Part shown: piece after piece, positions 138-11,242 of the stretch
How positions within the stretch are numbered: position 1 is the first letter of the stretch
Layout of the letters: each line of letters starts with the position of its first letter
Assembly: GCA_048886185.1 (NCBI GenBank)
Contig: JBHLKY010000042.1
Location: 4,861 to 16,102, forward strand
Length of the DNA stretch: 11,242 nucleotides
Origin: Candidatus Hermodarchaeota archaeon
Lineage (GTDB): Archaea; Asgardarchaeota; Heimdallarchaeia; Hodarchaeales; Hodarchaeaceae
Direction of reading: 5' to 3'
Notes under the pieces: generated by a model
Told to the model about the DNA's origin: nothing
The model's input: the letters and a program-made list of their open reading frames with translations, nothing else
Databases searched by the model: none
Program-made: the position numbers and the translations under genes

Positions 138-1193
138 ATGGTGGCAATAATTGTTATGCTAAAATCAAAACAAATAATCTTAGACCTGAGTGCCTACATA
201 GATCAGTCAATAATTGAAGCAAAAATCAAAGAAGCATTAGCCCACAACATATATGATTTTATTCTCCCTCTCGAAGTAGATTCATCAAATATTATTCTTG
301 ATTCTAAATCCTTACCTATTACTTTTCTGAAAATCACTGATTTTAAAACTGTCCACCAAATTTCAGCTAATTCAGAGCCAGAATTACGCTCTTTGTTTGA
401 ATCATCAGCTAAAATTTGTTTTGATCTTTCAAAAAATGAATGGGAAGTTATTCCATTAGAAAACATAATAGCTTGGGCTACAAATACTGCCTCTAAGATC
501 TATTCTAGGGTTAACTCCCTTGGAAAACTCAATTTACATTTTGAAATCCTTGAAAAAGGTGTTGATGGTGTAATTATTGATGAAAAAGCAGTAAACTATG
601 CTGAATTAGATAAAGTCAGGCTAAAATTAACTGATACATGTTTATCGTTAACCGAAGTAAAAATTGTTGAAATCAAGTCAGTTGGTTCTGGTGATCGTTG
701 TTGTTTAGATACTGCAGTTCTTTTAGACGATACGGAAGGAATGTTAATTGGTAATTTTTCTAGTGGATTTTTTCTTATTAGAGCAGAAAACATCCTTACA
801 GATCAGATACCACCTCGGCCTTTCCGAGTTAATGCTGGAGCTGTCCACTGTTACCTTTATACACCCACTAAAACCTTCTATTTATCAGAATTAAAATCGG
901 GATCGGAAGTTTTTGTTGTCAATAACGAAGGACGTGGGCGTTGTGTACCACTTGGCCGTAATAAAATTGAACAGCGCCCAATGGTTCAAGTTACAGCTGA
1001 AACGGATGTGGATAAAGAGTCAATCAGCATCATTGTGCAGCTAGCTGAAACAATAAGATTTGGAGCTAGAACAGAACGGGGATATATAACTGTGGACCAG
1101 CTTAAGTCTGGTGATAAGGTTTTAGCATATTTTCCTTCAACTAAATCCAGGCATTTTGGAACGGAAATCAATGAGTCCATCCAAGAAATATAA
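138..1193 (+). CDS. aroB': 3-dehydroquinate synthase II (MJ1249/AroB' family; homologous to GriH-type 3,4-AHBA synthase)
   Basis: Family motifs GSGDRCCLDT (cf. GxGDRVCVDT), PFRVNAGAVHCY, YLSELKSG, GRNKIEQRP, QLAETIRF and C-terminal RHFGTEINESIQE. Alternative start ATG 156 (MLKSKQIILD, GGTGG at 140-144) is equally plausible. Confidence 0.93.
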   Translation: MVAIIVMLKSKQIILDLSAYIDQSIIEAKIKEALAHNIYDFILPLEVDSSNIILDSKSLPITFLKITDFKTVHQISANSEPELRSLFESSAKICFDLSKNEWEVIPLENIIAWATNTASKIYSRVNSLGKLNLHFEILEKGVDGVIIDEKAVNYAELDKVRLKLTDTCLSLTEVKIVEIKSVGSGDRCCLDTAVLLDDTEGMLIGNFSSGFFLIRAENILTDQIPPRPFRVNAGAVHCYLYTPTKTFYLSELKSGSEVFVVNNEGRGRCVPLGRNKIEQRPMVQVTAETDVDKESISIIVQLAETIRFGARTERGYITVDQLKSGDKVLAYFPSTKSRHFGTEINESIQEI

Positions 1194-1860
1194 CCATATT
1201 TGTGGTGTTGTTACCGCTAAGACCGTTGACGAAGCGTTAACAATCATGGGAAGATACCATTTCTTAAGATTCATCGAAATTAGAGTTGATTATTTTGATA
1301 ATCCAATAGAAGCCTTGAGAGAGCTTTCTACAGAACCCATTAACTTACCAACAAAATGTATACTTACATACCGCTATCCTGAACACCAGAATTCATGGGA
1401 TTTTGTTCAACAAATATATACAAAAATTATCGAGCTAAAACCATCAATGGTTGATTTTAATTTTACATTAATAAAATTGTATCCTGCCTTCTTAGATCTA
1501 TGCAAAAAATATGAAGTCAGACCTATTTTATCAGCTCATCTCAATGATACTCCAGAAGTAGAACAATTAAAACACCTTCACAATGATCTTAACAATCTAT
1601 CAGCCAGTAGTATTAAAAAGATAGTTACAACAGCTCATTGTCTGGAAGACAACTTTACAACTTTAACTTTCTTGAATTCCTCTTCAAAAACTGATCTAAT
1701 TTGTTTTAGCTTAAGTCTCATTGGTCGTCTATCACGTATTCTATGCACATTCTATGGTTCTCTTCTTACATATGTTACTTTATCTAACGACAGGGTGGGG
1801 CCTGGTATATTAACTTTAGAAGAATATGAAAGGGTAGTCTCGATGTTATGTCTTGATTAA
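1171..1860 (+). CDS. aroD: Type I 3-dehydroquinate dehydratase, divergent
   Basis: EIRVDYF (ExRxD), LTYR, ILSAH (catalytic His), IKKIV (Schiff-base Lys), GRLSRI, GSLLTY and PG loop. ATG 1171 is preferred over the track's TTG 1156; it overlaps the aroB' stop by 23 bp. Confidence 0.85.
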   Translation: MSPSKKYNHICGVVTAKTVDEALTIMGRYHFLRFIEIRVDYFDNPIEALRELSTEPINLPTKCILTYRYPEHQNSWDFVQQIYTKIIELKPSMVDFNFTLIKLYPAFLDLCKKYEVRPILSAHLNDTPEVEQLKHLHNDLNNLSASSIKKIVTTAHCLEDNFTTLTFLNSSSKTDLICFSLSLIGRLSRILCTFYGSLLTYVTLSNDRVGPGILTLEEYERVVSMLCLD

Positions 1861-1922: not shown

Positions 1923-1962
1923 AAAGTAGAAAGAAAAGGAAAGAAAATTAGAGGCATTGATA

Positions 1963-2766
1963 ATGTCATTTCGTATGCATCGTATTTGTAAAGGTGGTCG
2001 TTTTCTCATTATCCCAATGGATCATGGATTTACGATTGGTCCAGTTACGGGGCTAATTGATATTAATAAGACTGTGGAAGCTGTTTCTAGTGGTGGTGCA
2101 ACTGCTATTCTGGGCCATAAAGGTTTTCTCCAGAGTATTGATCCTGAAATAATAGAGCCAACAACAGGTATCATTCTTCATATGAGCGGTAGCACTTCTT
2201 TTGGTCCAGATCCAAATTCTAAAGTGCTTATTGCATCATTAGACGATGCTTTTCGACTTGGTGTTGATGGTATTTCAGTTCATGTTAATGTTGGTGGATC
2301 TGATTATGAACCAAAAATGCTCTCAGATCTTGGTCAAATTGCTACAGAGAGTCAACAGTACAATATTCCCCTAATGGCTATGATGTACGCTCGTGGATCA
2401 AACATTGTAAATTCTTTCGATGCTAAAGTAATAGCCCATGCTGCAAGAATTGGCGCGGAATTAGGAGTAGATATTATCAAATGTAATTACACGGGTGATT
2501 CTGAAACATTTCGCGATGTTGTAAGGGGTTGTCCAAAACCTATAGTGATTGCTGGTGGCCCAAAGATGGATAATTCTTCAGAACTCATTAATATGGTTTG
2601 TGGAGCTATGGAAGCAGGAGCAGCAGGTATATCAATAGGGAGAAATATTTTTCAACATGATGATCCTAAACTCATAACACAAACAATGGCAAAGATTATC
2701 TTTGAAAACTACAGCCTGCAAAAAGCAACAAGCTTTTATGAAAGCCACGTTAATAAAATTGTGTGA
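1963..2766 (+). CDS. aroA': 2-amino-3,7-dideoxy-D-threo-hept-6-ulosonate (ADH) synthase, DhnA-type class I aldolase (MJ0400/AroA' family; homologous to GriI)
   Basis: PMDHG, GHKG, ILHMSGST, ISVHVNVG, MMYARG, AARIGAELGVDIIK (Schiff-base Lys), IAGGPK, GRNIFQH; clustered with DHQ synthase II. Start is ATG 1963 or TTG 1957 (in-frame TAG at 1927-1929). Not EPSP synthase despite the similar symbol. Confidence 0.9.
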   Translation: MSFRMHRICKGGRFLIIPMDHGFTIGPVTGLIDINKTVEAVSSGGATAILGHKGFLQSIDPEIIEPTTGIILHMSGSTSFGPDPNSKVLIASLDDAFRLGVDGISVHVNVGGSDYEPKMLSDLGQIATESQQYNIPLMAMMYARGSNIVNSFDAKVIAHAARIGAELGVDIIKCNYTGDSETFRDVVRGCPKPIVIAGGPKMDNSSELINMVCGAMEAGAAGISIGRNIFQHDDPKLITQTMAKIIFENYSLQKATSFYESHVNKIV

Positions 2767-2778
2767 TTACTATCGGAA

Positions 2779-3702
2779 GTGAAAATCATAGTTACCTTAA
2801 AAAAACGTATATATGGTCATTTAGTCCTTGTGCGTCCTTTACAGCTTTTCTGGCTTGATATTGTCGCTGGTTTTTCAGGTGTAGTTGTATTATTACAAGG
2901 ATTTCCTGATTTCTCAGATGTAATGTTCTTTTTTGCAATTTCTCTATTGGCTGACGCAGGCGCATGTACTTTTAATGATATAGCAGATATTGAGGTTGAC
3001 AGCAAGTCCATTGAATCGCGACGTTTTCGTCCGTTAGTTGTTGGAACTGTTTCAGTCCGCTCTGCTTGGATTCAAGGATTACTCTTGTATTGCTTGAGTG
3101 CTTTCTTGGCTTTCTTTATTAATCCTACTTTCTTTCTATTAACAATTCTAATGCTAATCTGGGCATTTCAATATTCCTTTCCACCATTACGTCTCACAGG
3201 ACGTCCATATATTTCCCAAGTTTATTGGGTAGTTTTCGTTTGTCTCTGGATAGCTCTTTTAACCTCTTATTTGGAACTACCATTTATTAAAAGTTTTTTC
3301 GACATATTTCCTTATTTAATGTATATGATGTTTTATTTATGTTTAGGAGAAACTATGGCGAAAGACATTCGAGATTGGGACAATGATAAATCTGCTGGAA
3401 AAAACACTACAACTGTTGTTATAGGACCTGCACGTGCAAGTGATTGGTCATTTGGCCTTGGATTTCTAGGTTGCTTGGGTTGGTTTTGGGCTGCTATTAG
3501 CTATAAACTTCATTTCTTTGTTATTATTGCTTTTGGTGCTATTGCTATACCGACATTTTACCTATTCTATCAATATCGCTCAAAATTACAGGTTGAATAT
3601 AATAAGATAATTGGACGTCACTTTCATGTAACTTATCTTCTATCAATGGCATTAATAACAATTTTGACAACTTTCTCTATTGGTTTTCAAGTGATAATGT
3701 GA
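2779..3702 (+). CDS. UbiA-superfamily membrane prenyltransferase, acceptor unknown
   Basis: N-terminal LVRP, first Asp-rich motif FNDIADIEVD...RPL, YSFPPLRL, second motif KDIRDWDNDKSAGKNT..V.IG, about 8-9 hydrophobic segments. GTG start 12 nt after the aroA' stop. Confidence 0.9.
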   Translation: MKIIVTLKKRIYGHLVLVRPLQLFWLDIVAGFSGVVVLLQGFPDFSDVMFFFAISLLADAGACTFNDIADIEVDSKSIESRRFRPLVVGTVSVRSAWIQGLLLYCLSAFLAFFINPTFFLLTILMLIWAFQYSFPPLRLTGRPYISQVYWVVFVCLWIALLTSYLELPFIKSFFDIFPYLMYMMFYLCLGETMAKDIRDWDNDKSAGKNTTTVVIGPARASDWSFGLGFLGCLGWFWAAISYKLHFFVIIAFGAIAIPTFYLFYQYRSKLQVEYNKIIGRHFHVTYLLSMALITILTTFSIGFQVIM

Positions 3703-3753
3703 TGAATACATTTCTTAAGACATTCTTTGTCGTAATTCATGCATGGTGAAATA

Positions 3754-4650
3754 ATGGAATCCTTTCCAGTTAGGAAAAAATCAATTACTAAACAAATTCT
3801 TATCAATCTAGGTATATTAGTTAGTTCTTTAATTTGTAGTTTTCTTTTTGTTAATGTATTTCTTAATTTTCTCGCGTCGCAATGGTATTATGATTTGGAT
3901 ACACAAATTATAGGTGATGAAACTGAGTTATTGTATAATTTGGGAAAATTATTTCAGCTATTTGGTTTAATTGTCGCTATTGGTTTATCAAGCCTTATCG
4001 TAATTGCTTTTTTCAGAAACATTCGTCAAAAAAACTTCTCTAGATTCGCGCAGTTTTCCATAGCTTGGTTTTTCATAATCTTAGGGGTAATTACTGGTTT
4101 TACATTCTTTTTTCCTGAGGGGACTGGTGTTTTAGCAGATAGAGAATTCTATTGGAGAGCTGCTTTTCCTTTTGCAATAATAGGAGTCGGTTTTTCCATT
4201 CTTATGACCACTGAAGTAATAGAGAGTCAGAAAAAAGGAAAAAAACTGATTCTATGGCTAGTAATGCTAACTTTGTTATCTTTGGGAATCTTTACAACCA
4301 TTAGTTATGATAAAATCCATCCTTGGGGTCAAGATGCAAACCACCCTTGGATGCTAAGTTTGTCCCTAGGAGCTCATTATCTGGTAACATTTTGGATAAT
4401 AGGAATGTCTTTCGTATTATTAACGATCAAAATTCGTTTTTACATGGCTTGGAACGATTTAATTAATATTTCAGCATGTTGCAGTTCTTTAATAACTTTC
4501 ATAGTAGCATTTCCCCCATTTATTCCAAGAGGTGTAACTTATATTGAGTTATACAGATATTTTGCGGTGATTTTAATATTGGGGGCTATTTCAATGCTTC
4601 TATGGAGTATTAATGAAATAATTAAACAAAAATTAGATGGAAATAAGTAA
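3754..4650 (+). CDS. Hypothetical integral membrane protein (~8 TM by eye)
   Basis: Long ORF with repeated hydrophobic 20-aa stretches. GGTGA at 3745-3749 sits 4 nt before ATG 3754, favouring it over ATG 3739. Confidence 0.85.
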   Translation: MESFPVRKKSITKQILINLGILVSSLICSFLFVNVFLNFLASQWYYDLDTQIIGDETELLYNLGKLFQLFGLIVAIGLSSLIVIAFFRNIRQKNFSRFAQFSIAWFFIILGVITGFTFFFPEGTGVLADREFYWRAAFPFAIIGVGFSILMTTEVIESQKKGKKLILWLVMLTLLSLGIFTTISYDKIHPWGQDANHPWMLSLSLGAHYLVTFWIIGMSFVLLTIKIRFYMAWNDLINISACCSSLITFIVAFPPFIPRGVTYIELYRYFAVILILGAISMLLWSINEIIKQKLDGNK

Positions 4651-5488
4651 ATTGGTAGAAGAATCGGAACTGGAAGCTGTTTGCATTTACGTTCAGTGGG
4701 TAGTAAATACAATAGGGAAAATACCTGCTGGGGAACAATTTATTAGCAATACAATTTATGAAATCTTTAATGTATCAATCTACTTGTTCTTACCGATTAA
4801 TTTGCTGTTATGGACAATTTTTGTGATCCAAATACTGAATGTCAGACAAGAAAAAACAATAGTTGAAAAAATAGAAATATTACTAATACCAAGTTTGCTG
4901 GTAATTGGTACTTCAGAAGTTTGTATCCGATTTGTTCTAAGTGGTTCATTGGAATCTATCAAATTGGATTTAGACTATAAAGGCTGGATTCTTATCTTTA
5001 TTTGCTGGATTTATCTAGTAATTATTCTAGAAACATCTAAGCTGATTTTACAAGATACTTCTATCGTTATTCCAACCATCAATAAATCAGAACTTAATGT
5101 GATATTAGCTCTTGTTCTAAGCATAATTTGGATTGGCATCCGTATAGTATTTGGGATTAATCAAAGTCTGTTGTTCTTAGAGTTTGTTAACATTATAAGT
5201 TTGTTATTGATTATTTTTATAACGTTAACAAAAGAGATGACACCAAAAATTCTTTTTCACTGGTTATTCATCATCAGTGTTTTATTCATAGTTCTTATTG
5301 TCTACCCTGGGATAATGGTTGATCCTCCAAAGATGGAAACACAGACCTATATTTATTTACGTAACCAATTCATTGGTATGGGCGTAATGGGAATCATCTG
5401 GACGCTTTTGCTTAGTCTTCTTGAACGAAATGAGTATTCAAGCAATCCATCACAGACCAAAGTAGGACATGTACTCCAATATGATTAA
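4637..5488 (+). CDS. Hypothetical integral membrane protein (~7 TM by eye), probable distant paralog of the upstream gene
   Basis: 283-aa hydrophobic ORF overlapping the upstream stop by 14 bp. Shares NIRQK/NVRQEK and TYIxLxxxF...GxI..LL.S..E patterns with it. Confidence 0.85.
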   Translation: MEISKLVEESELEAVCIYVQWVVNTIGKIPAGEQFISNTIYEIFNVSIYLFLPINLLLWTIFVIQILNVRQEKTIVEKIEILLIPSLLVIGTSEVCIRFVLSGSLESIKLDLDYKGWILIFICWIYLVIILETSKLILQDTSIVIPTINKSELNVILALVLSIIWIGIRIVFGINQSLLFLEFVNIISLLLIIFITLTKEMTPKILFHWLFIISVLFIVLIVYPGIMVDPPKMETQTYIYLRNQFIGMGVMGIIWTLLLSLLERNEYSSNPSQTKVGHVLQYD

Positions 5489-5507
5489 CGAAAAAGTGTA
5501 CCAAAAA

Positions 5508-5568
5508 GTCGAACAGCCCGTTCGGAATAGCAAACACGCTGTAGGAATTTCACGGCCAAGCGTTCGAT
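5508..5568 (+). other. attC-like 61-bp imperfect palindrome (candidate integron recombination site or structured element)
   Basis: Ends GTCGAAC (5508-5514) and GTTCGAT (5562-5568) are complementary. Inner arms CCGT-[TC]-GGAAT (5518-5528) pair with ATTTC-ACGG (5547-5555). 32/60 GC by hand count. Starts 19 nt after a stop codon. Confidence 0.4.
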
Positions 5569-5606
5569 TATATAGGTATTTAAAGATGCCATTAGAAGAG
5601 TTAGTC

Positions 5607-5633
5607 ATTATTGATGGTTAATCCATTAATAAT
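5607..5633. repeat. 27-bp near-perfect inverted repeat ATTATTGATGG-TTAAT-CCATTAATAAT
   Basis: 11-bp arms matching 10/11 (one G-T) with a 5-nt spacer; read directly. Confidence 0.8.
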
Positions 5634-5657
5634 TCAATAGTCTAAATTTCTAAATTA

Positions 5658-5680
5658 AGGAAATATAAACAATCTAGATT
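5658..5680 (+). promoter_or_regulatory. Putative archaeal promoter (purine-rich BRE-like AGGAAA + TATAAA 5664-5669) followed by perfect palindrome AATCTAGATT (5671-5680)
   Basis: TATA-like box 42 nt upstream of ATG 5712; GGAGA at 5700-5704 is a possible RBS. Confidence 0.4.
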
Positions 5681-5711
5681 TGAAATCCAATAGAAAATTG
5701 GAGATGTTGAA

Positions 5712-6371
5712 ATGAAATGGTATTTTCCAATTCTGGGAGCACTACTTTTGATTTTTTTTTCTCCTTTCATTGATAAGGACTTACCAGTGGTTTTACCTGT
5801 ACAAACTGAAGGTAAAAAATTTATGATTCCAGTAGGTGCCTTGTGGTTTGATCTCACCTCTTCAGAACCAATAAAAAGGTTTGCTTTAGCAGAGTTTTAT
5901 CCAGATCAATCATTTATTGGTCGGTATGATATTAAGATCGAGGGTAATTTATATTTGGAAGACTATTCCCCTGCTTGCAGTGTTATTTGCCGAAATCTAT
6001 GGAACAGCTCAGACGTTCCACATGAGATGTCTACGAGTGATTTTTTTCATGAAACGTATACCTATAGTTACAGCCAACCAACAATACACAACTCAGATTT
6101 TTCTATACAACTAGAACTAAAAGCTGACACGGAAATATCAACCCAAAATCCAGTTAAAGGATGGTTCTTATTGAAAGTGATTCATGATGGGGTAACTGAA
6201 AAACCTGATGATTTCACCATGCCAACGCCCGTGGATACAACAACAGCTACTGACACCACAGAAACAGAAACGATAGATTCAAACTCCAAACAAGAAGTTT
6301 CTTTTACAAATAGTTTCATTTGCTTTCTTTCCTTGGGAGTGCTCTTTCTCATACAAAAAAAGTTCAAATAG
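5712..6371 (+). CDS. Hypothetical secreted/cell-surface protein, copy 1
   Basis: N-terminal hydrophobic signal, beta-strand-like core with CSVIC, Thr-rich linker (PTPVDTTTATDTTETET), C-terminal TM plus basic tail (QKKFK). Confidence 0.88.
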   Translation: MKWYFPILGALLLIFFSPFIDKDLPVVLPVQTEGKKFMIPVGALWFDLTSSEPIKRFALAEFYPDQSFIGRYDIKIEGNLYLEDYSPACSVICRNLWNSSDVPHEMSTSDFFHETYTYSYSQPTIHNSDFSIQLELKADTEISTQNPVKGWFLLKVIHDGVTEKPDDFTMPTPVDTTTATDTTETETIDSNSKQEVSFTNSFICFLSLGVLFLIQKKFK

Positions 6372-6391
6372 ACCCTTAGAGTGGCTATCAA

Positions 6392-7051
6392 ATGGAATGG
6401 CGATCCTTGTTTCTGGTAGTTTTTCTTATTACTTTTATTTTCTCTTTCACCATCAAAGACTTATCAATGGTTTTACCTGAACCAACTGAAGGTAAAATAT
6501 TTAGAGTGCCAGGAGGTGCCTTATGGTTCAATCTCACCTCTTCAGAACCAGTAAAAAGGTTTACCTTAACAGAATTTTACCCAGATCAATCATTTATTGG
6601 TCGGTATGATATTAAAATCGACAGTATGTTGTATTTAATAGATCATTCTCCTGTTTGTAGTGTTATTTGCCGAAATCTATGGAATAGCTCAGATGCTCCT
6701 CATGAGATGTCTACAAGTGAAGATTTTCATAAAACATATACCTATAGTTACAGCCAACCAACAGTGGATAATTCGGATTTTTCTATACAACTGAAATTAA
6801 GAGCTGAAACGGAAATACCAACCCAAAATCCAGTTAAAGGATGGTTCCTATTGAAAGTGATTCATGATGGGGTAACTGATAAACCTGATGATTTCACCAT
6901 GCCAACACCTGTGGATACAGCAACAACTACTAACACTACAGAAACAGAAACGATGGATTCAAACTCCAAACAAGAAGTTTCCTTTATAAACAGTTTTATT
7001 TGCTTTCTTTCTTTGGGAATGCTCTTTCTCTTGAAAAAAAAGGTCAGGTAA
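6392..7051 (+). CDS. Hypothetical secreted/cell-surface protein, copy 2
   Basis: Same length (219 aa) and architecture as copy 1; 165/219 identical by ungapped hand alignment. Confidence 0.88.
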   Translation: MEWRSLFLVVFLITFIFSFTIKDLSMVLPEPTEGKIFRVPGGALWFNLTSSEPVKRFTLTEFYPDQSFIGRYDIKIDSMLYLIDHSPVCSVICRNLWNSSDAPHEMSTSEDFHKTYTYSYSQPTVDNSDFSIQLKLRAETEIPTQNPVKGWFLLKVIHDGVTDKPDDFTMPTPVDTATTTNTTETETMDSNSKQEVSFINSFICFLSLGMLFLLKKKVR

Positions 7052-7136: not shown

Positions 7137-8468
7137 ATGCGAATTCCTGATCGGATAGTTAATTATATATTATGGAAGGCTTCATCTGATTATTTCACTT
7201 TGAGGAGATTGAAAAAAACAGTTAAACTAGCCCATCAAACGGAATTTTATCGGGAAAAATTATCTAAAGCTGGTGTTAGAAGCATCAGTTCCATTGAGGA
7301 TTTTATAACCAAAATTCCACTCACCCAACGAGAAGAGATTTCTCTCGAGGCCATTTCTCCTTATGATCTACTAGCTGTTGACTCGAGTAAAGAGATGGTT
7401 TTATTTGGACAGACCAGTGGAGCGACTAGTGGTCATTCTGTTCCTGTTTTTATGACCAAAAAGGAATTCAAGAAAGCTATCAAAATGGCAATGAGGTTAC
7501 CTGTTTTCAAACATATTTCTTCTCGAGATCGCGTATGCCTTCTTTTTCCGATGGTTAGAACATTTGCTGGGCAGACAGCTGCAGCTATGGTGGAACATGC
7601 AGGAGCGTTACTGGCCAGTATGGGTACGCGTACTAATATCAACCCACCAGAACAAGTGGGCAAAACCATTCTTAAACTAAAGCCAACGATATTAGGGGTA
7701 GTTGCCACTGATGCCCTTGCTCTTGCTCAAATATTCAAGGATTGGGGGATAAACCCTAAGAGTATAGGTGTTAAAAAACTAGTTATAGGTGCAGAACTCT
7801 GTTCAAAAAATCGGATGAAGAGGATGCAAGAAATCTATGGCGCAGAGATGATTTTTAATTTTGTTGGTCAAAACGAAGTAGGATTACCAGGGATTCCATG
7901 TATCAAAGGAAACACGCATTTTCCATCGATTGCGATGTTTGTTGAATTGTGGTCGATAGATGGAAAACATAAGGTTGGTTTTGGTCAACAAGCAGTTCCA
8001 GTGATCACTCCTTTGTTTAAAAAAGCCATGCCAGTGCTCCGTTATTGGACAAAGGACATTGTTATCATGGAAGAAGGGAAAAACTGTCCTTGTGGACTTC
8101 AATTACCTTTATACAACATCTTAGGGAGAGAAGGAACCGAGATACGTGCGAAAAATGACAATGCCTTGATGCCTATCGAAATAGAAGACATTCTGTACAA
8201 AACAGCTATTGATGGTGTTTGGTACCAAATCGAGATAGATGAGGATACAGTAGCTATAACTGTTGAACATCGGGTGAAGAAGGAATGGAAAATACTTGAA
8301 AGCGAAATTGCAGGTAATTTCATGGGAGTCTTTGATCAAAAGATTCAAGTAGAGTGTGTTCCTGTTGGTACATTATATGATTATACAGTAATCCGTCCTG
8401 GTAAACCCATCTCAAGGATAGTTGATCATAGAAAAACTGAATCAGTTCCCATATTGGAAGGTGCATGA
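7137..8468 (+). CDS. Phenylacetate-CoA ligase (PaaK)/F390 synthetase-like adenylate-forming enzyme, divergent
   Basis: FYREKL..AG, P-loop QTSGATSG, KPTIL, LVIGAE, VGQNEVG (cf. YGxSE), MPVLRYWTKD (cf. PxIRYRTxD), CPCG, ILGR, C-terminal GKPISRIVDHRK. GAGG RBS at 7126-7129. Confidence 0.85.
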   Translation: MRIPDRIVNYILWKASSDYFTLRRLKKTVKLAHQTEFYREKLSKAGVRSISSIEDFITKIPLTQREEISLEAISPYDLLAVDSSKEMVLFGQTSGATSGHSVPVFMTKKEFKKAIKMAMRLPVFKHISSRDRVCLLFPMVRTFAGQTAAAMVEHAGALLASMGTRTNINPPEQVGKTILKLKPTILGVVATDALALAQIFKDWGINPKSIGVKKLVIGAELCSKNRMKRMQEIYGAEMIFNFVGQNEVGLPGIPCIKGNTHFPSIAMFVELWSIDGKHKVGFGQQAVPVITPLFKKAMPVLRYWTKDIVIMEEGKNCPCGLQLPLYNILGREGTEIRAKNDNALMPIEIEDILYKTAIDGVWYQIEIDEDTVAITVEHRVKKEWKILESEIAGNFMGVFDQKIQVECVPVGTLYDYTVIRPGKPISRIVDHRKTESVPILEGA

Positions 8469-8529: not shown

Positions 8530-9645
8530 ATGTCAAATTCTTTTGGTCAAATATTTCGAATTACCATCTTTGGTGAGAGTTATGGAGAGTCAATAGGAGT
8601 TGTTATTGATGGTTGTCCACCTGGTATATTGATTGATCCCAAAGAAATCGAAGAGGCTCTTAAGAAGGGTGAAGCAAGATACTTACCAGGGATTACTAGT
8701 GAGCGGACGGAATCTAATGAGTTCAAGATCAAATCAGGTGTTTTTAATGGATTTAGTACTGGAGCTCCTATAACTTTAGAGATAGCTAATGAAGATCTAA
8801 GAGACAGTTCAAAATATGAAAAACGGAAGCATACTCCGCGCCCTGGTCATTCAGACTTTACTACGAGATTAAAATATGGTGGTTTCAATGATTACAGGGG
8901 AGGTGGTCGTTTTTCGGGCAGAGTGATGGTTGCGATAACGGCTGCAGGTTGTATTGCCAAGAAATTACTTTTGAATTACGCAAATGTCCGCATCTTTACA
9001 TTCACTTCACAAATTGGCAGTATTTCATTTCAAATGAACGAATTTAATGAAGGAATTTTTGATAGAGATCCCTATAATTATCTATCTAGGTGCCCCGATT
9101 ATGAGATTGACCGTATAATGGTAGAGGAAATTCTTAAGGTAAAAAATGAAGGGGATAGTATTGGCGGGATAATTTCATGCTATATTAAAGGTATTCCAAC
9201 AGGTCTTGGGGAACCACTTTTCAATAATATTGAGAGTAACCTAGCTTCAGGAATGTTTAGTATCCCAGGAGCATGTGCCATTGATTTTGGAACAGGGTTT
9301 CGATTAGCTCAAATGAAAGGATCTGAAGCCAATGACCAGTTATATTACAATTCTCGGAAAGATCGCTTCGAGACTAAAACGAATCATAGTGGAGGAATAT
9401 TAGGTGGAATATCAACTGGTATCTCTCCTATTACTTTCCATTTAGCATTTAAACCAACCCCGTCAATTTACAAACCCCAACATACAGTTAATCTAAAAAC
9501 AAAGGAAAATTTTGTAATGAAATTAGGTGGACGGTTTGATCCGTGTATTGTGCCCAGAGCAGTGATAATAGTGGAACAACTAGCTGCTCTAGTGTTTGCA
9601 GATTTGTTCTTGTTGGCTGAAGTTGCTAAACCGAAAAAATTCTAA
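8530..9645 (+). CDS. aroC: Chorismate synthase homolog with atypical active-site residues
   Basis: MSNSFG..FRITIFGES.G, IDGCPPG, PRPGHSD, DYRGGGRFSGR, GDSIGG, GLGEP, NHSGGILGGIS, FKPTPSI, GRFDPCIVPRA. Start ATG 8530 has GGTGAG at 8520-8525; the track start at 8422 is an in-frame TTG inside the upstream gene. Confidence 0.92.
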   Translation: MSNSFGQIFRITIFGESYGESIGVVIDGCPPGILIDPKEIEEALKKGEARYLPGITSERTESNEFKIKSGVFNGFSTGAPITLEIANEDLRDSSKYEKRKHTPRPGHSDFTTRLKYGGFNDYRGGGRFSGRVMVAITAAGCIAKKLLLNYANVRIFTFTSQIGSISFQMNEFNEGIFDRDPYNYLSRCPDYEIDRIMVEEILKVKNEGDSIGGIISCYIKGIPTGLGEPLFNNIESNLASGMFSIPGACAIDFGTGFRLAQMKGSEANDQLYYNSRKDRFETKTNHSGGILGGISTGISPITFHLAFKPTPSIYKPQHTVNLKTKENFVMKLGGRFDPCIVPRAVIIVEQLAALVFADLFLLAEVAKPKKF

Positions 9646-9648
9646 TTC

Positions 9649-10503
9649 TTAGAGGAGACGAATGCAGCTCACACGGGATTTTAAGATTAGTGAAGGATCT
9701 AGTCCGTCCCACGCTTTTATGATATTTGGTTCATCCTTTTTGTGACATAAAGCAACAATTGCAGGACCAGTGCCAGAAACTGATGCTGCTAGTGCTTTAT
9801 TTTTTAAAGCAATATCCATTGGAGTGGTATCATATTCAAATGATCGTGCGACAAGGAAGCCATTTTGTGTCATAGCCGTTAAGAAGTCTGTTTTGGCTTT
9901 TTTAATAATTTCTTGCATTTCTAAGGCGTTTTGTTGAAAATTAGTTATTTCCTCAAAAAAGTTAACTGTTTTTCGTGCCTTGAATTTACCAGGAATAAAA
10001 ATTAAAACAATAATTTCAAAAGGCACTGGCTGATGCAACAATACCAGGTTCTGAGTGTTATTAGTGATGCAGAAACCTCCTAACAAAGAAGCAGTTGCAT
10101 CATCCAGAGCACCTGTCACTGAAATCTTTGCTTGTATTGCAGCACTTGTACTAATGTCTAAAATTTGTTTTACAGAAAGTTGCACGTTGGCAGCATTAAC
10201 AGTCGCTAACACAGCAGCATTAATAACAGCACTAGAACTTTTTAAGCCAAAAGCAATGGGAATATTCGAACCAACGGTAACTATTCCCCCTAATGGTTTC
10301 TGTTCTCCAATGTAGGTCAAAGTTTTTTTTATAGCAATTTGAACTGCATGTGAAGGCGCTAGCAACGGCTTATTCTCTTTTAGATTAATAATTACATCAG
10401 TAAAGAGGTCTTTTAAGCCTATAGCTGCTCCTGTTCCAGTAGCCAATGCATTAATAACACTGATAGCCCCAAAGGCATGCCCGTGACCTTTAAAAATGTT
10501 AAT
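9649..10503 (-). CDS. aroK: Archaeal (GHMP-superfamily) shikimate kinase; start probably non-canonical ATT at 10503 or 10497
   Basis: GAISVINALATGTGAAIG, IPIAFGLKSSSA, SVTGALDDATASLLGG, SVSGTGPA. The conserved N-terminal motif lies upstream of the track's TTG at 10446. 284 aa from ATT 10503. Confidence 0.88.
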   Translation of the reverse strand: MNIFKGHGHAFGAISVINALATGTGAAIGLKDLFTDVIINLKENKPLLAPSHAVQIAIKKTLTYIGEQKPLGGIVTVGSNIPIAFGLKSSSAVINAAVLATVNAANVQLSVKQILDISTSAAIQAKISVTGALDDATASLLGGFCITNNTQNLVLLHQPVPFEIIVLIFIPGKFKARKTVNFFEEITNFQQNALEMQEIIKKAKTDFLTAMTQNGFLVARSFEYDTTPMDIALKNKALAASVSGTGPAIVALCHKKDEPNIIKAWDGLDPSLILKSRVSCIRLL

Positions 10504-11242
10504 TAGTGATTTCCCTCCAAATAGACCTCATAATTTCTAGATCGGTTTCTAACCTGGTCCATATTGAAAAGGCTTTTGCTGCTTGACCTAAGAACATTTT
10601 TACACCACTGACGACATTTTTGTGATATTCAGTAGCTTGTTCAACTAGCCTTGTTACCGATGGGTTATAAACCATATCGAATACAAAAGTACACTTTTTT
10701 ATCCAGCTTGTTGGAACAATAGTTGAAAAAGTTTGGCCAGCCATTCCTACTGGAGTTGCATTAACAATCAAATCAATATCTGGTATAATTTTCAGGGAAT
10801 CGGTGAGAGAAATATATTCTAATCCGAATTCCTTAGCTAATTTTTTACCCTTAGCTTCAGTACGGTTAACTAATATACCAGTTTTATTTTTTAAAGCAAC
10901 ACACAGTGCTCGGGCAGCGCCCCCAGCTCCAAAAACAGCGTAGCTACCAATCTGGTCTATGTATTCAGTCAAAGCACTACTAATTCCATCAATATCTGTA
11001 TTATACCCTTGAAGTTTCTCTCCATCAAACCATATTGTGTTAATTGCTTTTATTTCCTCTACTGATTGATCCAAGGAGTCACATAGCGGAAGAATACTCT
11101 CTTTAAAAGGAGTCGTAATATTAGCTCCCAAAAAATTTATCTCCTTAAGTCCCTCAATAGCTTTCTTGAGATCATTGGGAGCAAAGGCAAGATAACAGAA
11201 ATTAAGATTATAAAATGAGATTAAAGCGTTCATGACAGGGGG
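10499..11242 (-). CDS. aroE: Shikimate dehydrogenase (NADP), 5'-partial at the window edge
   Basis: GANITTPFKE, AINTI, GYNTD, GAGGAARA, VNRT, VNATPVGM, FDMVYNP, G.KMFLGQA..AF.IWT. The frame stays open to 11242 (CCC CCT GTC ATG), and the usual SxSP N-terminus is missing, so ATG 11233 is probably internal. Confidence 0.93.
   Translation of the reverse strand, partial: PPVMNALISFYNLNFCYLAFAPNDLKKAIEGLKEINFLGANITTPFKESILPLCDSLDQSVEEIKAINTIWFDGEKLQGYNTDIDGISSALTEYIDQIGSYAVFGAGGAARALCVALKNKTGILVNRTEAKGKKLAKEFGLEYISLTDSLKIIPDIDLIVNATPVGMAGQTFSTIVPTSWIKKCTFVFDMVYNPSVTRLVEQATEYHKNVVSGVKMFLGQAAKAFSIWTRLETDLEIMRSIWREITN
10513..10518 (-). promoter_or_regulatory. Shine-Dalgarno-like GGAGGG upstream of the aroK N-terminus, inside the aroE 3' end
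   Basis: Minus strand reads TTT GGAGGG AAATCACTA ATT AAC ATT TTT AAA GGT. Confidence 0.55.

Follow-up and report, generated by a model that had tools for sequence, protein, structure and literature searches.

A divergent chorismate synthase homologue in an archaeal shikimate gene cluster that may act on a substrate lacking the enolpyruvyl group

Introduction

What does a chorismate synthase (CS) do in a genome in which neither the enzyme that makes its substrate nor the enzymes that consume its product are found? The question is raised by a stretch of 11,242 nucleotides from the genome of a Candidatus Hermodarchaeota archaeon (assembly GCA_048886185.1, contig JBHLKY010000042.1, positions 4,861 to 16,102 of the forward strand), referred to as a whole as the window, in which a divergent CS homologue, designated CS* here (8530..9645, plus strand), lies within a cluster of shikimate pathway genes. 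The CS family is treated as single-function, and the presence of CS is used to annotate a complete shikimate pathway. CS* is a conserved variant in genomes with no means found to make 5-enolpyruvylshikimate-3-phosphate (EPSP) or to use chorismate. Within the collection of papers searched, no account of CS paralogues, CS-like enzymes or CS variants of this type was found. Mainly on the strength of gene content and conserved context, we propose, at roughly even odds, that CS* is a flavin mononucleotide (FMN)-dependent phosphate eliminase acting on shikimate-3-phosphate, or on a derivative of it, that lacks the enolpyruvyl carboxylate. Together with a bacterial group of variants described below, it suggests that the CS family probably has a second, undescribed reaction.

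Results and Discussion

Shikimate-3-phosphate is presumably made, and EPSP synthase is not found

Judged by family assignment, the cluster is predicted to supply shikimate-3-phosphate. On the plus strand are found a 3-dehydroquinate synthase II (archaeal AroB′, 138..1193; PF01959, 279.9 bits), a type I 3-dehydroquinate dehydratase (AroD, 1156..1860; PF01487, 96.9 bits) and a 2-amino-3,7-dideoxy-D-threo-hept-6-ulosonate (ADH) synthase (archaeal AroA′, 1957..2766; TIGR01949, 304.1 bits with a cut-off of 299.45, and NF005556, 327 bits). On the minus strand, beyond CS*, lie an archaeal GHMP-type shikimate kinase (9649..10446; TIGR01920, 160.4 bits, cut-off 126.85) and a shikimate dehydrogenase (AroE, 10499..11242; PF08501, PF01488 and PF18317), the frame of which is still open where the window and the 16102 bp contig both end.

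EPSP synthase was not found. CS* is carried by three species with independent assemblies, i.e. the genome of the window (G000, 4.84 Mb), G003 and G012, as well as by a metagenomic relative, L011. No match to the EPSP synthase family PF00275 was detected in G000, G003 or G012, and none to the NCBIfam aroA model TIGR01356 in G000 or G012, in agreement with the absence that a first-pass annotation of the window had invoked. The search was positive in 14 of 14 control genomes and in three relatives at the level of class or order, G023, G026 and G034, in which aroA lies immediately upstream of a normal CS. Enzymes downstream of chorismate are missing as well: prephenate dehydratase (PDT, PF00800) and TrpA (PF00290), both present in G026 and G034, were not found in the three CS* genomes, and searches of G000 found no chorismate-binding enzyme (PF00425; anthranilate synthase), no CM_2 chorismate mutase (PF01817), no chorismate lyase UbiC (PF04345) and no MqnA (PF02621).

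CS* retains the family fold and loses residues that are nearly invariant in CS

The CS* reading frame runs from an ATG at 8530 to the stop at 9645 and encodes 371 amino acids. The longest possible frame opens at a TTG at 8422 and runs over the 3′ end of the upstream ligase gene; ATG 8530 is the likely true start because homologues begin at MSNSFG, so that 61 nt separate it from the ligase stop at 8468. The Pfam family PF01264 (Chorismate_synt) covers the protein end to end (375.6 bits, cut-off 27), and two NCBIfam aroC equivalog cut-offs in all are passed (TIGR00033, 370.6 bits against 212.2; NF003793, 365.3 bits against 321). No other CS homologue is present in G000. An AlphaFold2 model built from 51 sequences is confident throughout, with a predicted local distance difference test (pLDDT) score of 92.3 and a predicted template modelling score of 0.92. 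Foldseek aligned it with template modelling scores of 0.84-0.86 to the structures 7RCA, 1UM0, 2O12 and 1QXO, the last being the FMN-EPSP complex, and the beta-alpha-beta sandwich fold of CS is intact in the model.

Conservation was assessed in two panels, the first consisting of 139 diverse representatives, one per cluster at 50% identity, out of 1.84 billion proteins, the second of the 114 nearest canonical archaeal CS sequences. CS* departs from the consensus at 23 of the 129 columns that are conserved at 90% or more. Codon 47 (GGT, 8668..8670) encodes Gly in all 7 clade members compared, at a position equivalent to fungal R46 that is Arg in 138 of the 139 representatives. The Asp of the RxExD motif, present in 137 representatives, is replaced in all clade members by Asn at codon 63 (AAT, 8716..8718; RTESN). 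Similarly, all clade members have Met at codon 133 (8926..8928; SGRVM), the Thr of SxRxT in 132 representatives, and Phe at codon 336 (9535..9537; GRFD), which is His in most CS (GRHD; 128 representatives) and is also Phe in 6 of the 114 archaeal sequences. Two more changes are seen in the window itself: Tyr for the His of GESHG at codon 18 (TAT, 8581..8583; GESYG), a position that is His in 138 representatives, and Cys for the Lys of AxKG at codon 249 (TGT, 9274..9276; IPGACAIDFG), which is Lys in 122. H18, R47, D63, T133 and K249 are each found in 114 of 114 archaeal sequences, and R47 and D63 do not vary either among the 61 canonical sequences used for the tree described below. The residues, motifs and codons reported in the first-pass annotation are thus exact in the sequence, and its statement that normally conserved positions are affected is borne out by columns conserved in 122-138 of the 139 representatives. 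H336F was absent from its list.

Ten residues of the phosphate site or of catalysis are kept (S17, R59, E61, R104, H107, S129, R131, R335, D337 and R343), each of them conserved in 132-139 of the 139 representatives. Of the FMN-site motifs, the His of RPGH, GGxxGG (as GGILGGIS) and KPTPS (as KPTPSI) are also retained, as had been noted before together with GRxD, and K249 is replaced. The loop around position 47 is altered as well, in that the canonical [R/K]-R-[R/K]-P-G becomes K-G-E in the archaeal clade, CS* itself reading LKKGEARYLPG. According to a summary of a docking study, the fungal enzyme holds the two EPSP carboxylates with R46, R103 and R362 and the phosphate with R129 and R354. G47 of CS* aligns with R46, and among these five arginines only the R46 position is lost. 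The loss of charge in this loop fits a substrate with one anionic group fewer. The His of GESHG (H17 in N. crassa) is regarded as the probable proton donor to the leaving phosphate.

The changes fall into two layers in a small clade under purifying selection

The CS* clade is tiny, with about 17 known sequences, and clustering of the 1.84 billion proteins at 50% identity places all of it in a single cluster. CS was present in 212 of 400 genomes of the phylum, with the CS* type confined to the three species named above and the next match being only 50% identical; most species of the genus are without any CS. R47G, D63N, T133M and H336F are common to the entire clade, including L011, which is 60% identical to CS*. 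H18Y and K249C are restricted to G000, its sister species G003 (92% identical) and near relatives, so that the substitutions listed in the first-pass annotation are only in part shared by orthologues. H18 is kept in G012, in P0003-P0006 and in L011, and residue 249 is Cys, Arg or Lys within the clade, a relative from mangrove having the Arg codon CGT. Because one clade sequence combines C249 with H18, Cys249 arose before Tyr18. By this distribution, H18Y and K249C are recent changes layered on an already changed enzyme, outside the signature of the clade.

Side observations were made on two of these sequences. In the L011 gene, a run of C (around 1860-1885) just after the GESHG region contains a 1-nt frameshift that puts the N-terminus, with its His intact, in another frame; the cause may be an error of sequencing, or the copy may be broken. 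The 90% cluster of P0003 includes a 44-aa fragment labelled as alkyldihydroxyacetonephosphate synthase of the bird Balearica regulorum, probably a contaminant contig or a database mislabel.

The Y18 and C249 alleles recur in proteins of the G003 type deposited at NCBI, JGI and ENA. The entire CS* gene is also covered, with one difference elsewhere, by a contig that the same study obtained from another sample, and a contig from a different study retains the T at 9274. Assembly errors, or changes private to this genome, both of which had been considered beforehand, are ruled out by this recurrence in several independent assemblies and samples.

Could CS* instead be degenerating under selection that relaxed once the aromatic amino acid pathway was lost? 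Relaxed selection or decay had been allowed for in the first-pass annotation. Such a history would fit the absence of the downstream pathway from the organism, the lack of any CS in most species of the genus, the mere remnant of the cluster in G015 (see below) and the frameshift in L011. Against this stands the ratio of non-synonymous to synonymous substitution rates (dN/dS), which is 0.15-0.17 among the three species (0.167 between G000 and G003, 0.146-0.151 relative to G012) and 0.08 relative to L011. Across ten cluster genes compared with G012 the ratio ranges from 0.146 to 0.42, and CS* has the lowest value. At least 15 sequences, originating from several studies, have an open frame, fixation of the core substitutions extends over 40% sequence divergence, and the structural model is confident throughout. 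Decay is therefore rejected, since dN/dS is as low as or below that of the cluster neighbours, and we consider it very improbable; by the same measure CS* is under purifying selection. That selection persists unchanged with Tyr at position 18 suggests that the replacement of His is tolerated or compensated rather than a loss of function.

A ligase, a prenyltransferase and membrane proteins accompany CS*

Immediately upstream of CS* lies a gene for a PaaK/F390-synthetase-like adenylate-forming ligase (7137..8468, plus strand), the best NCBIfam match of which is BagE/FevW at 95.5 bits, far below the cut-off. The ligase gene adjoins CS* in G003, G012 and L011, where it is directly upstream of the 60% identical CS, and no ligase paralogue was found in G000 at E<=1e-5. 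The cluster also has its own UbiA-family prenyltransferase (2779..3702, plus strand; PF01040, 105.6 bits), which falls below the cut-off of every NCBIfam model, models resembling digeranylgeranylglyceryl phosphate (DGGGP) synthase being nearest. Its counterpart in G012 is 83% identical, whereas the other UbiA copies of G000 are merely 25-28% identical to it. Look-ups of UbiA and ligase in a protein atlas gave broad families only.

The remaining genes, also on the plus strand, encode membrane or secreted proteins. Two overlapping genes for multi-pass membrane proteins (3739..5488; no Pfam match at E<0.1) are 70% and 66% identical to genes of the G012 cluster. They are followed by tandem paralogues of 219 aa each (5712..6371 and 6392..7051), the translations of which are hydrophobic in an N-terminal segment and in a C-terminal tail with basic residues at its end, with a linker rich in Thr and Asp, so that they look like secreted, C-terminally anchored proteins. 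Both are present in the G012 cluster at 56-61% identity. None of these four proteins matches a Pfam family even at E<=1.

The whole 11-kb cluster is conserved in G012 (locus L010), with all genes at 56-85% identity, and G003 has the part from ligase through CS* and kinase to dehydrogenase, on a short contig. The block of membrane proteins and paralogues corresponding to window positions 3739-7051 is inverted in G012 (L010, 5320-10244), where the flanking shikimate, UbiA, ligase and CS genes have the same orientation as in the window. In G015, of the same genus, what looks like a remnant of the cluster (L022, 9495-11763) consists of an 88% identical 3-dehydroquinate synthase II within a 636-aa frame and a truncated dehydroquinase.

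A bacterial group of CS variants with the same four columns changed

A pattern like that of CS* is also seen in P0262, which comes from a Wallbacteria metagenome-assembled genome and is among the 139 representatives. A search starting from P0262 led to a large bacterial group: of its 120 best hits, about 45 have R47 replaced, mostly by Asp, together with D63N, T133C and H336F. In this group, which includes P0291, P0292, P0287, P0313, P0285 and P0309, all annotated at source merely as 'chorismate synthase', column 47 is D, S, N or A, column 63 N, column 133 C and column 336 F, and the loop reads [R/K]-D-[V/I]. Of the columns conserved at 85% or more in the canonical set, only 47, 63, 133 and 336 are replaced in most members of both the archaeal and the bacterial group; column 249, changed in the archaeal clade, is relaxed in the bacterial group.

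In a tree of 96 sequences including 61 canonical CS, the bacterial variant group is monophyletic (support 99), as is the archaeal CS* clade (support 100), which has a stem branch of 0.67 and is placed with canonical archaeal CS (support 97). A tree joining both variant groups was 62.7 log-likelihood units worse and was rejected by the approximately unbiased (AU) test (p=0.006). The archaeal and bacterial variants thus likely arose independently.

Two bacterial genomes, G041 and G402, carry the variant in addition to a higher-scoring normal CS, which in G041 forms part of an operon with aroA and chorismate mutase/PDT (aroA-CS-CM/PDT). In all six contexts from the main branches of the group, the genes after the variant CS encode first a NapH-like polyferredoxin membrane protein and next a ligase of 370-430 aa, these two being sometimes fused. 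In two contexts, a gene of the 3-deoxy-D-arabinoheptulosonate 7-phosphate (DAHP) synthase family is found directly upstream of the variant CS. In L014 (9126-13531) and L027 (5139-9566), the genes for the DAHP-synthase-family protein, variant CS, polyferredoxin and ligase overlap or abut, which suggests that these modules form a dedicated branch off the shikimate pathway. No polyferredoxin gene was found in the archaeal window cluster, and the rest of G000 gave only weak matches to ferredoxin domains.

The bacterial ligase is 27% identical to the window ligase over about 410 aa (E=6e-35). The two are reciprocal best matches, the window ligase being the sole match in G000 and the bacterial ligase by far the best in G041, and BagE/FevW, which activate hydroxybenzoate, are the best, if sub-threshold, NCBIfam match of both. 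By these comparisons, the pairing of a variant CS with this type of ligase recurs in two lineages. A sub-branch of the bacterial group differs in context: upstream of the variant CS there is always a gene for a 94-133-aa protein with a treble-clef zinc finger (zf_Tbcl), and there is no ligase (L015/L016, 9692-11026; L012, 2673-4111; L028, 4124-5585).

Proposed reaction and alternative explanations

CS* keeps the CS fold in the model, most motifs of the FMN site and the residues expected to hold and expel the 3-phosphate (S17, R59, H107, S129, R131, R335 and D337). The invariant Arg47 and a neighbouring positive charge are lost, and D63, T133 and H336 have become Asn, Met and Phe. Since shikimate-3-phosphate would be delivered by the cluster enzymes and no EPSP synthase was found in the genome, CS* would most likely act on shikimate-3-phosphate or a derivative, by the 1,4-elimination of phosphate with reduced FMN that is typical of CS. 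The product would be a dihydroxycyclohexadiene carboxylate, the 3,4-dihydroxy compound in the proposal of the first-pass annotation, or, once aromatised, a hydroxybenzoate. The PaaK-like ligase may activate the ring carboxylate either before or after this step: elimination could take place on shikimate-3-phosphate, with the ligase activating the product, or ligation could come first, with elimination on a thioester or adenylate. Prenylation by the UbiA of the cluster would yield a specialised product bound to the membrane, in place of aromatic amino acids. We infer substrate, product and order of steps from the gene set and the altered residues. For the archaeal clade, a CS that does without the enolpyruvyl group is the best-supported reading, although the chances for and against it seem to us about balanced.

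Several observations weigh against this proposal. The missing aroA rests on assemblies that are 96% (G000), 83% (G003) and 83% (G012) complete. Some positive charge is left in the loop, as K45 and K46 stay, and R50 too in 3 of 4 sequences. The first-pass annotation had equated the lost Arg with the ligand of the enolpyruvyl carboxylate; its alignment with a carboxylate-binding residue stands, but R46 may touch either of the two carboxylates of EPSP, that of the enolpyruvyl group or that of the ring, and the carboxylate role itself is taken from the docking summary. The AU test was set up with the tree already known, and a long branch leads to the archaeal clade. Finally, in G401, the one searchable genome of the zinc-finger sub-branch, the variant is the only CS found, and a genuine aroA, which scores 330 bits against TIGR01356 and lies in an aroA-cmk context, is present together with a gene of the MqnA/MqnD family and a weak CM_2 match. 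If the G401 assembly is complete, this sub-branch probably still makes chorismate, and the four-column signature alone is therefore no proof of a change of substrate. PDT and a chorismate-binding enzyme were not found in G401. Two peptidase-U32-family genes flank its aroA-cmk pair (L032, 3614-6193 and 9311-10603).

The case of G401 bears on the possibility that CS* is still a true chorismate synthase, supplied with EPSP by an unrecognised or unassembled enzyme, its changes being a tolerated variant that reflects, for example, a different supply of reduced FMN. This would agree with the curated aroC cut-offs that CS* passes, with the retained catalytic and phosphate-site residues and with the occurrence of F336 in some ordinary CS, in addition to G401, where no CS other than a variant of similar signature was found and where a genuine aroA and a gene of the MqnA/MqnD family are present. 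Yet aroA, PDT and TrpA would have to be missed in three independently assembled species, and four further users of chorismate in G000, all of these being genes that relatives with a normal CS possess. R47 and D63 are, moreover, invariant among the canonical sequences of the tree, and the coexistence of the bacterial variant with a normal CS in G041 and G402 argues for a separate role. On balance we regard a true chorismate synthase as unlikely. The separate role might also be a different one altogether, CS* being an FMN-binding redox or flavin-reductase subunit that serves the ligase or a membrane electron chain and eliminates no phosphate from a shikimate-type substrate. Flavin reductase activity is known for some CS, and the bacterial variants are translationally coupled to the NapH-like polyferredoxin membrane protein; the archaeal cluster, however, has no such gene. 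Against a redox subunit, the phosphate-binding arginines, the serines and the catalytic Asp are all kept. The shikimate kinase, with a dN/dS of 0.15-0.16, is under equally strong purifying selection, which is sensible only if shikimate-3-phosphate is consumed, and a DAHP-synthase-family gene opens two of the bacterial modules. This explanation seems to us quite unlikely.

It is also conceivable, with a rather slim chance, that UbiA takes the place of EPSP synthase, forming a prenyl ether on a hydroxyl of shikimate-3-phosphate, and that CS* eliminates phosphate from the resulting lipid-anchored analogue of EPSP. In a similar way, DGGGP synthases, the nearest if weak relatives of the cluster UbiA, act on a small phosphate ester, one hydroxyl of which they alkylate. 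This would lead to a prenylated analogue of chorismate or a prenyl-ether benzoate, to be activated by the ligase. Such a substrate would explain the loss of the carboxylate-binding Arg and the hydrophobic replacements at T133 and H336 and, if real, would yield a new class of archaeal membrane compound.

Comparison with known systems and significance

Relative to AroC (EC 4.2.3.5), CS* is alike in fold, protein length, family cut-offs, the phosphate-binding R59, R131 and R335, S17 and S129, and the Asp of GRxD. It differs in lacking the Arg equivalent to R46, the Asp of RxExD and the Thr of SxRxT, in G000 also the His of GESHG and the Lys of AxKG, and in its setting, with neither EPSP synthase nor chorismate consumers found and with linkage to a ligase and a prenyltransferase. 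The bacterial variant group shares with CS* the four changed columns, the relaxed column 249 and a homologous PaaK-like partner ligase, and in two genomes it accompanies a normal CS instead of replacing it. It differs in forming a separate clade, in the residues at 47 (Asp for Gly) and 133 (Cys for Met), in the polyferredoxin encoded between CS and ligase, in the absence of UbiA and, in one sub-branch, in having the zinc-finger gene in place of the ligase.

A functional parallel may be seen in the pathway from shikimate to cyclohexanecarboxyl-coenzyme A (CoA) that Skyrud and colleagues reportedly described in 2020, with a shikimoyl-CoA synthetase and a flavin adenine dinucleotide (FAD)-dependent dehydratase. 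As in the reaction proposed for CS*, a carboxylate ligase would be combined with a flavin-dependent 1,4-elimination on a shikimate skeleton without an enolpyruvyl group, and the ligation-first order considered above would follow the same logic. The likeness is one of function only: the enzymes are non-homologous, and the dehydratase, of the acyl-CoA dehydrogenase type, removes water and not phosphate. Chorismatases and chorismate lyases (FkbO/Hyg5, XanB2, UbiC) convert chorismate to dihydroxycyclohexadiene carboxylates or to 3- or 4-hydroxybenzoate, which feed prenyltransferases or ligases. These are the kinds of product proposed for CS*, made from a different substrate, chorismate, by enzymes of unrelated sequence.

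Should CS* indeed act on shikimate-3-phosphate or a derivative, the CS flavoenzyme would have a second reaction, and the shikimate pathway would branch at a new point upstream of chorismate. It would also imply an unknown prenylated product in sediment archaea, in a clade whose nearest CS relatives with names are from Asgard archaea (Promethearchaeota, Helarchaeota) and Bathyarchaeia. In metabolic reconstructions of such genomes, the presence of aroC should not be equated with the capacity to make chorismate. Columns 47 and 63 offer a simple test, as Arg47 is lost in both variant groups and Asn63 is found in almost all of their members.

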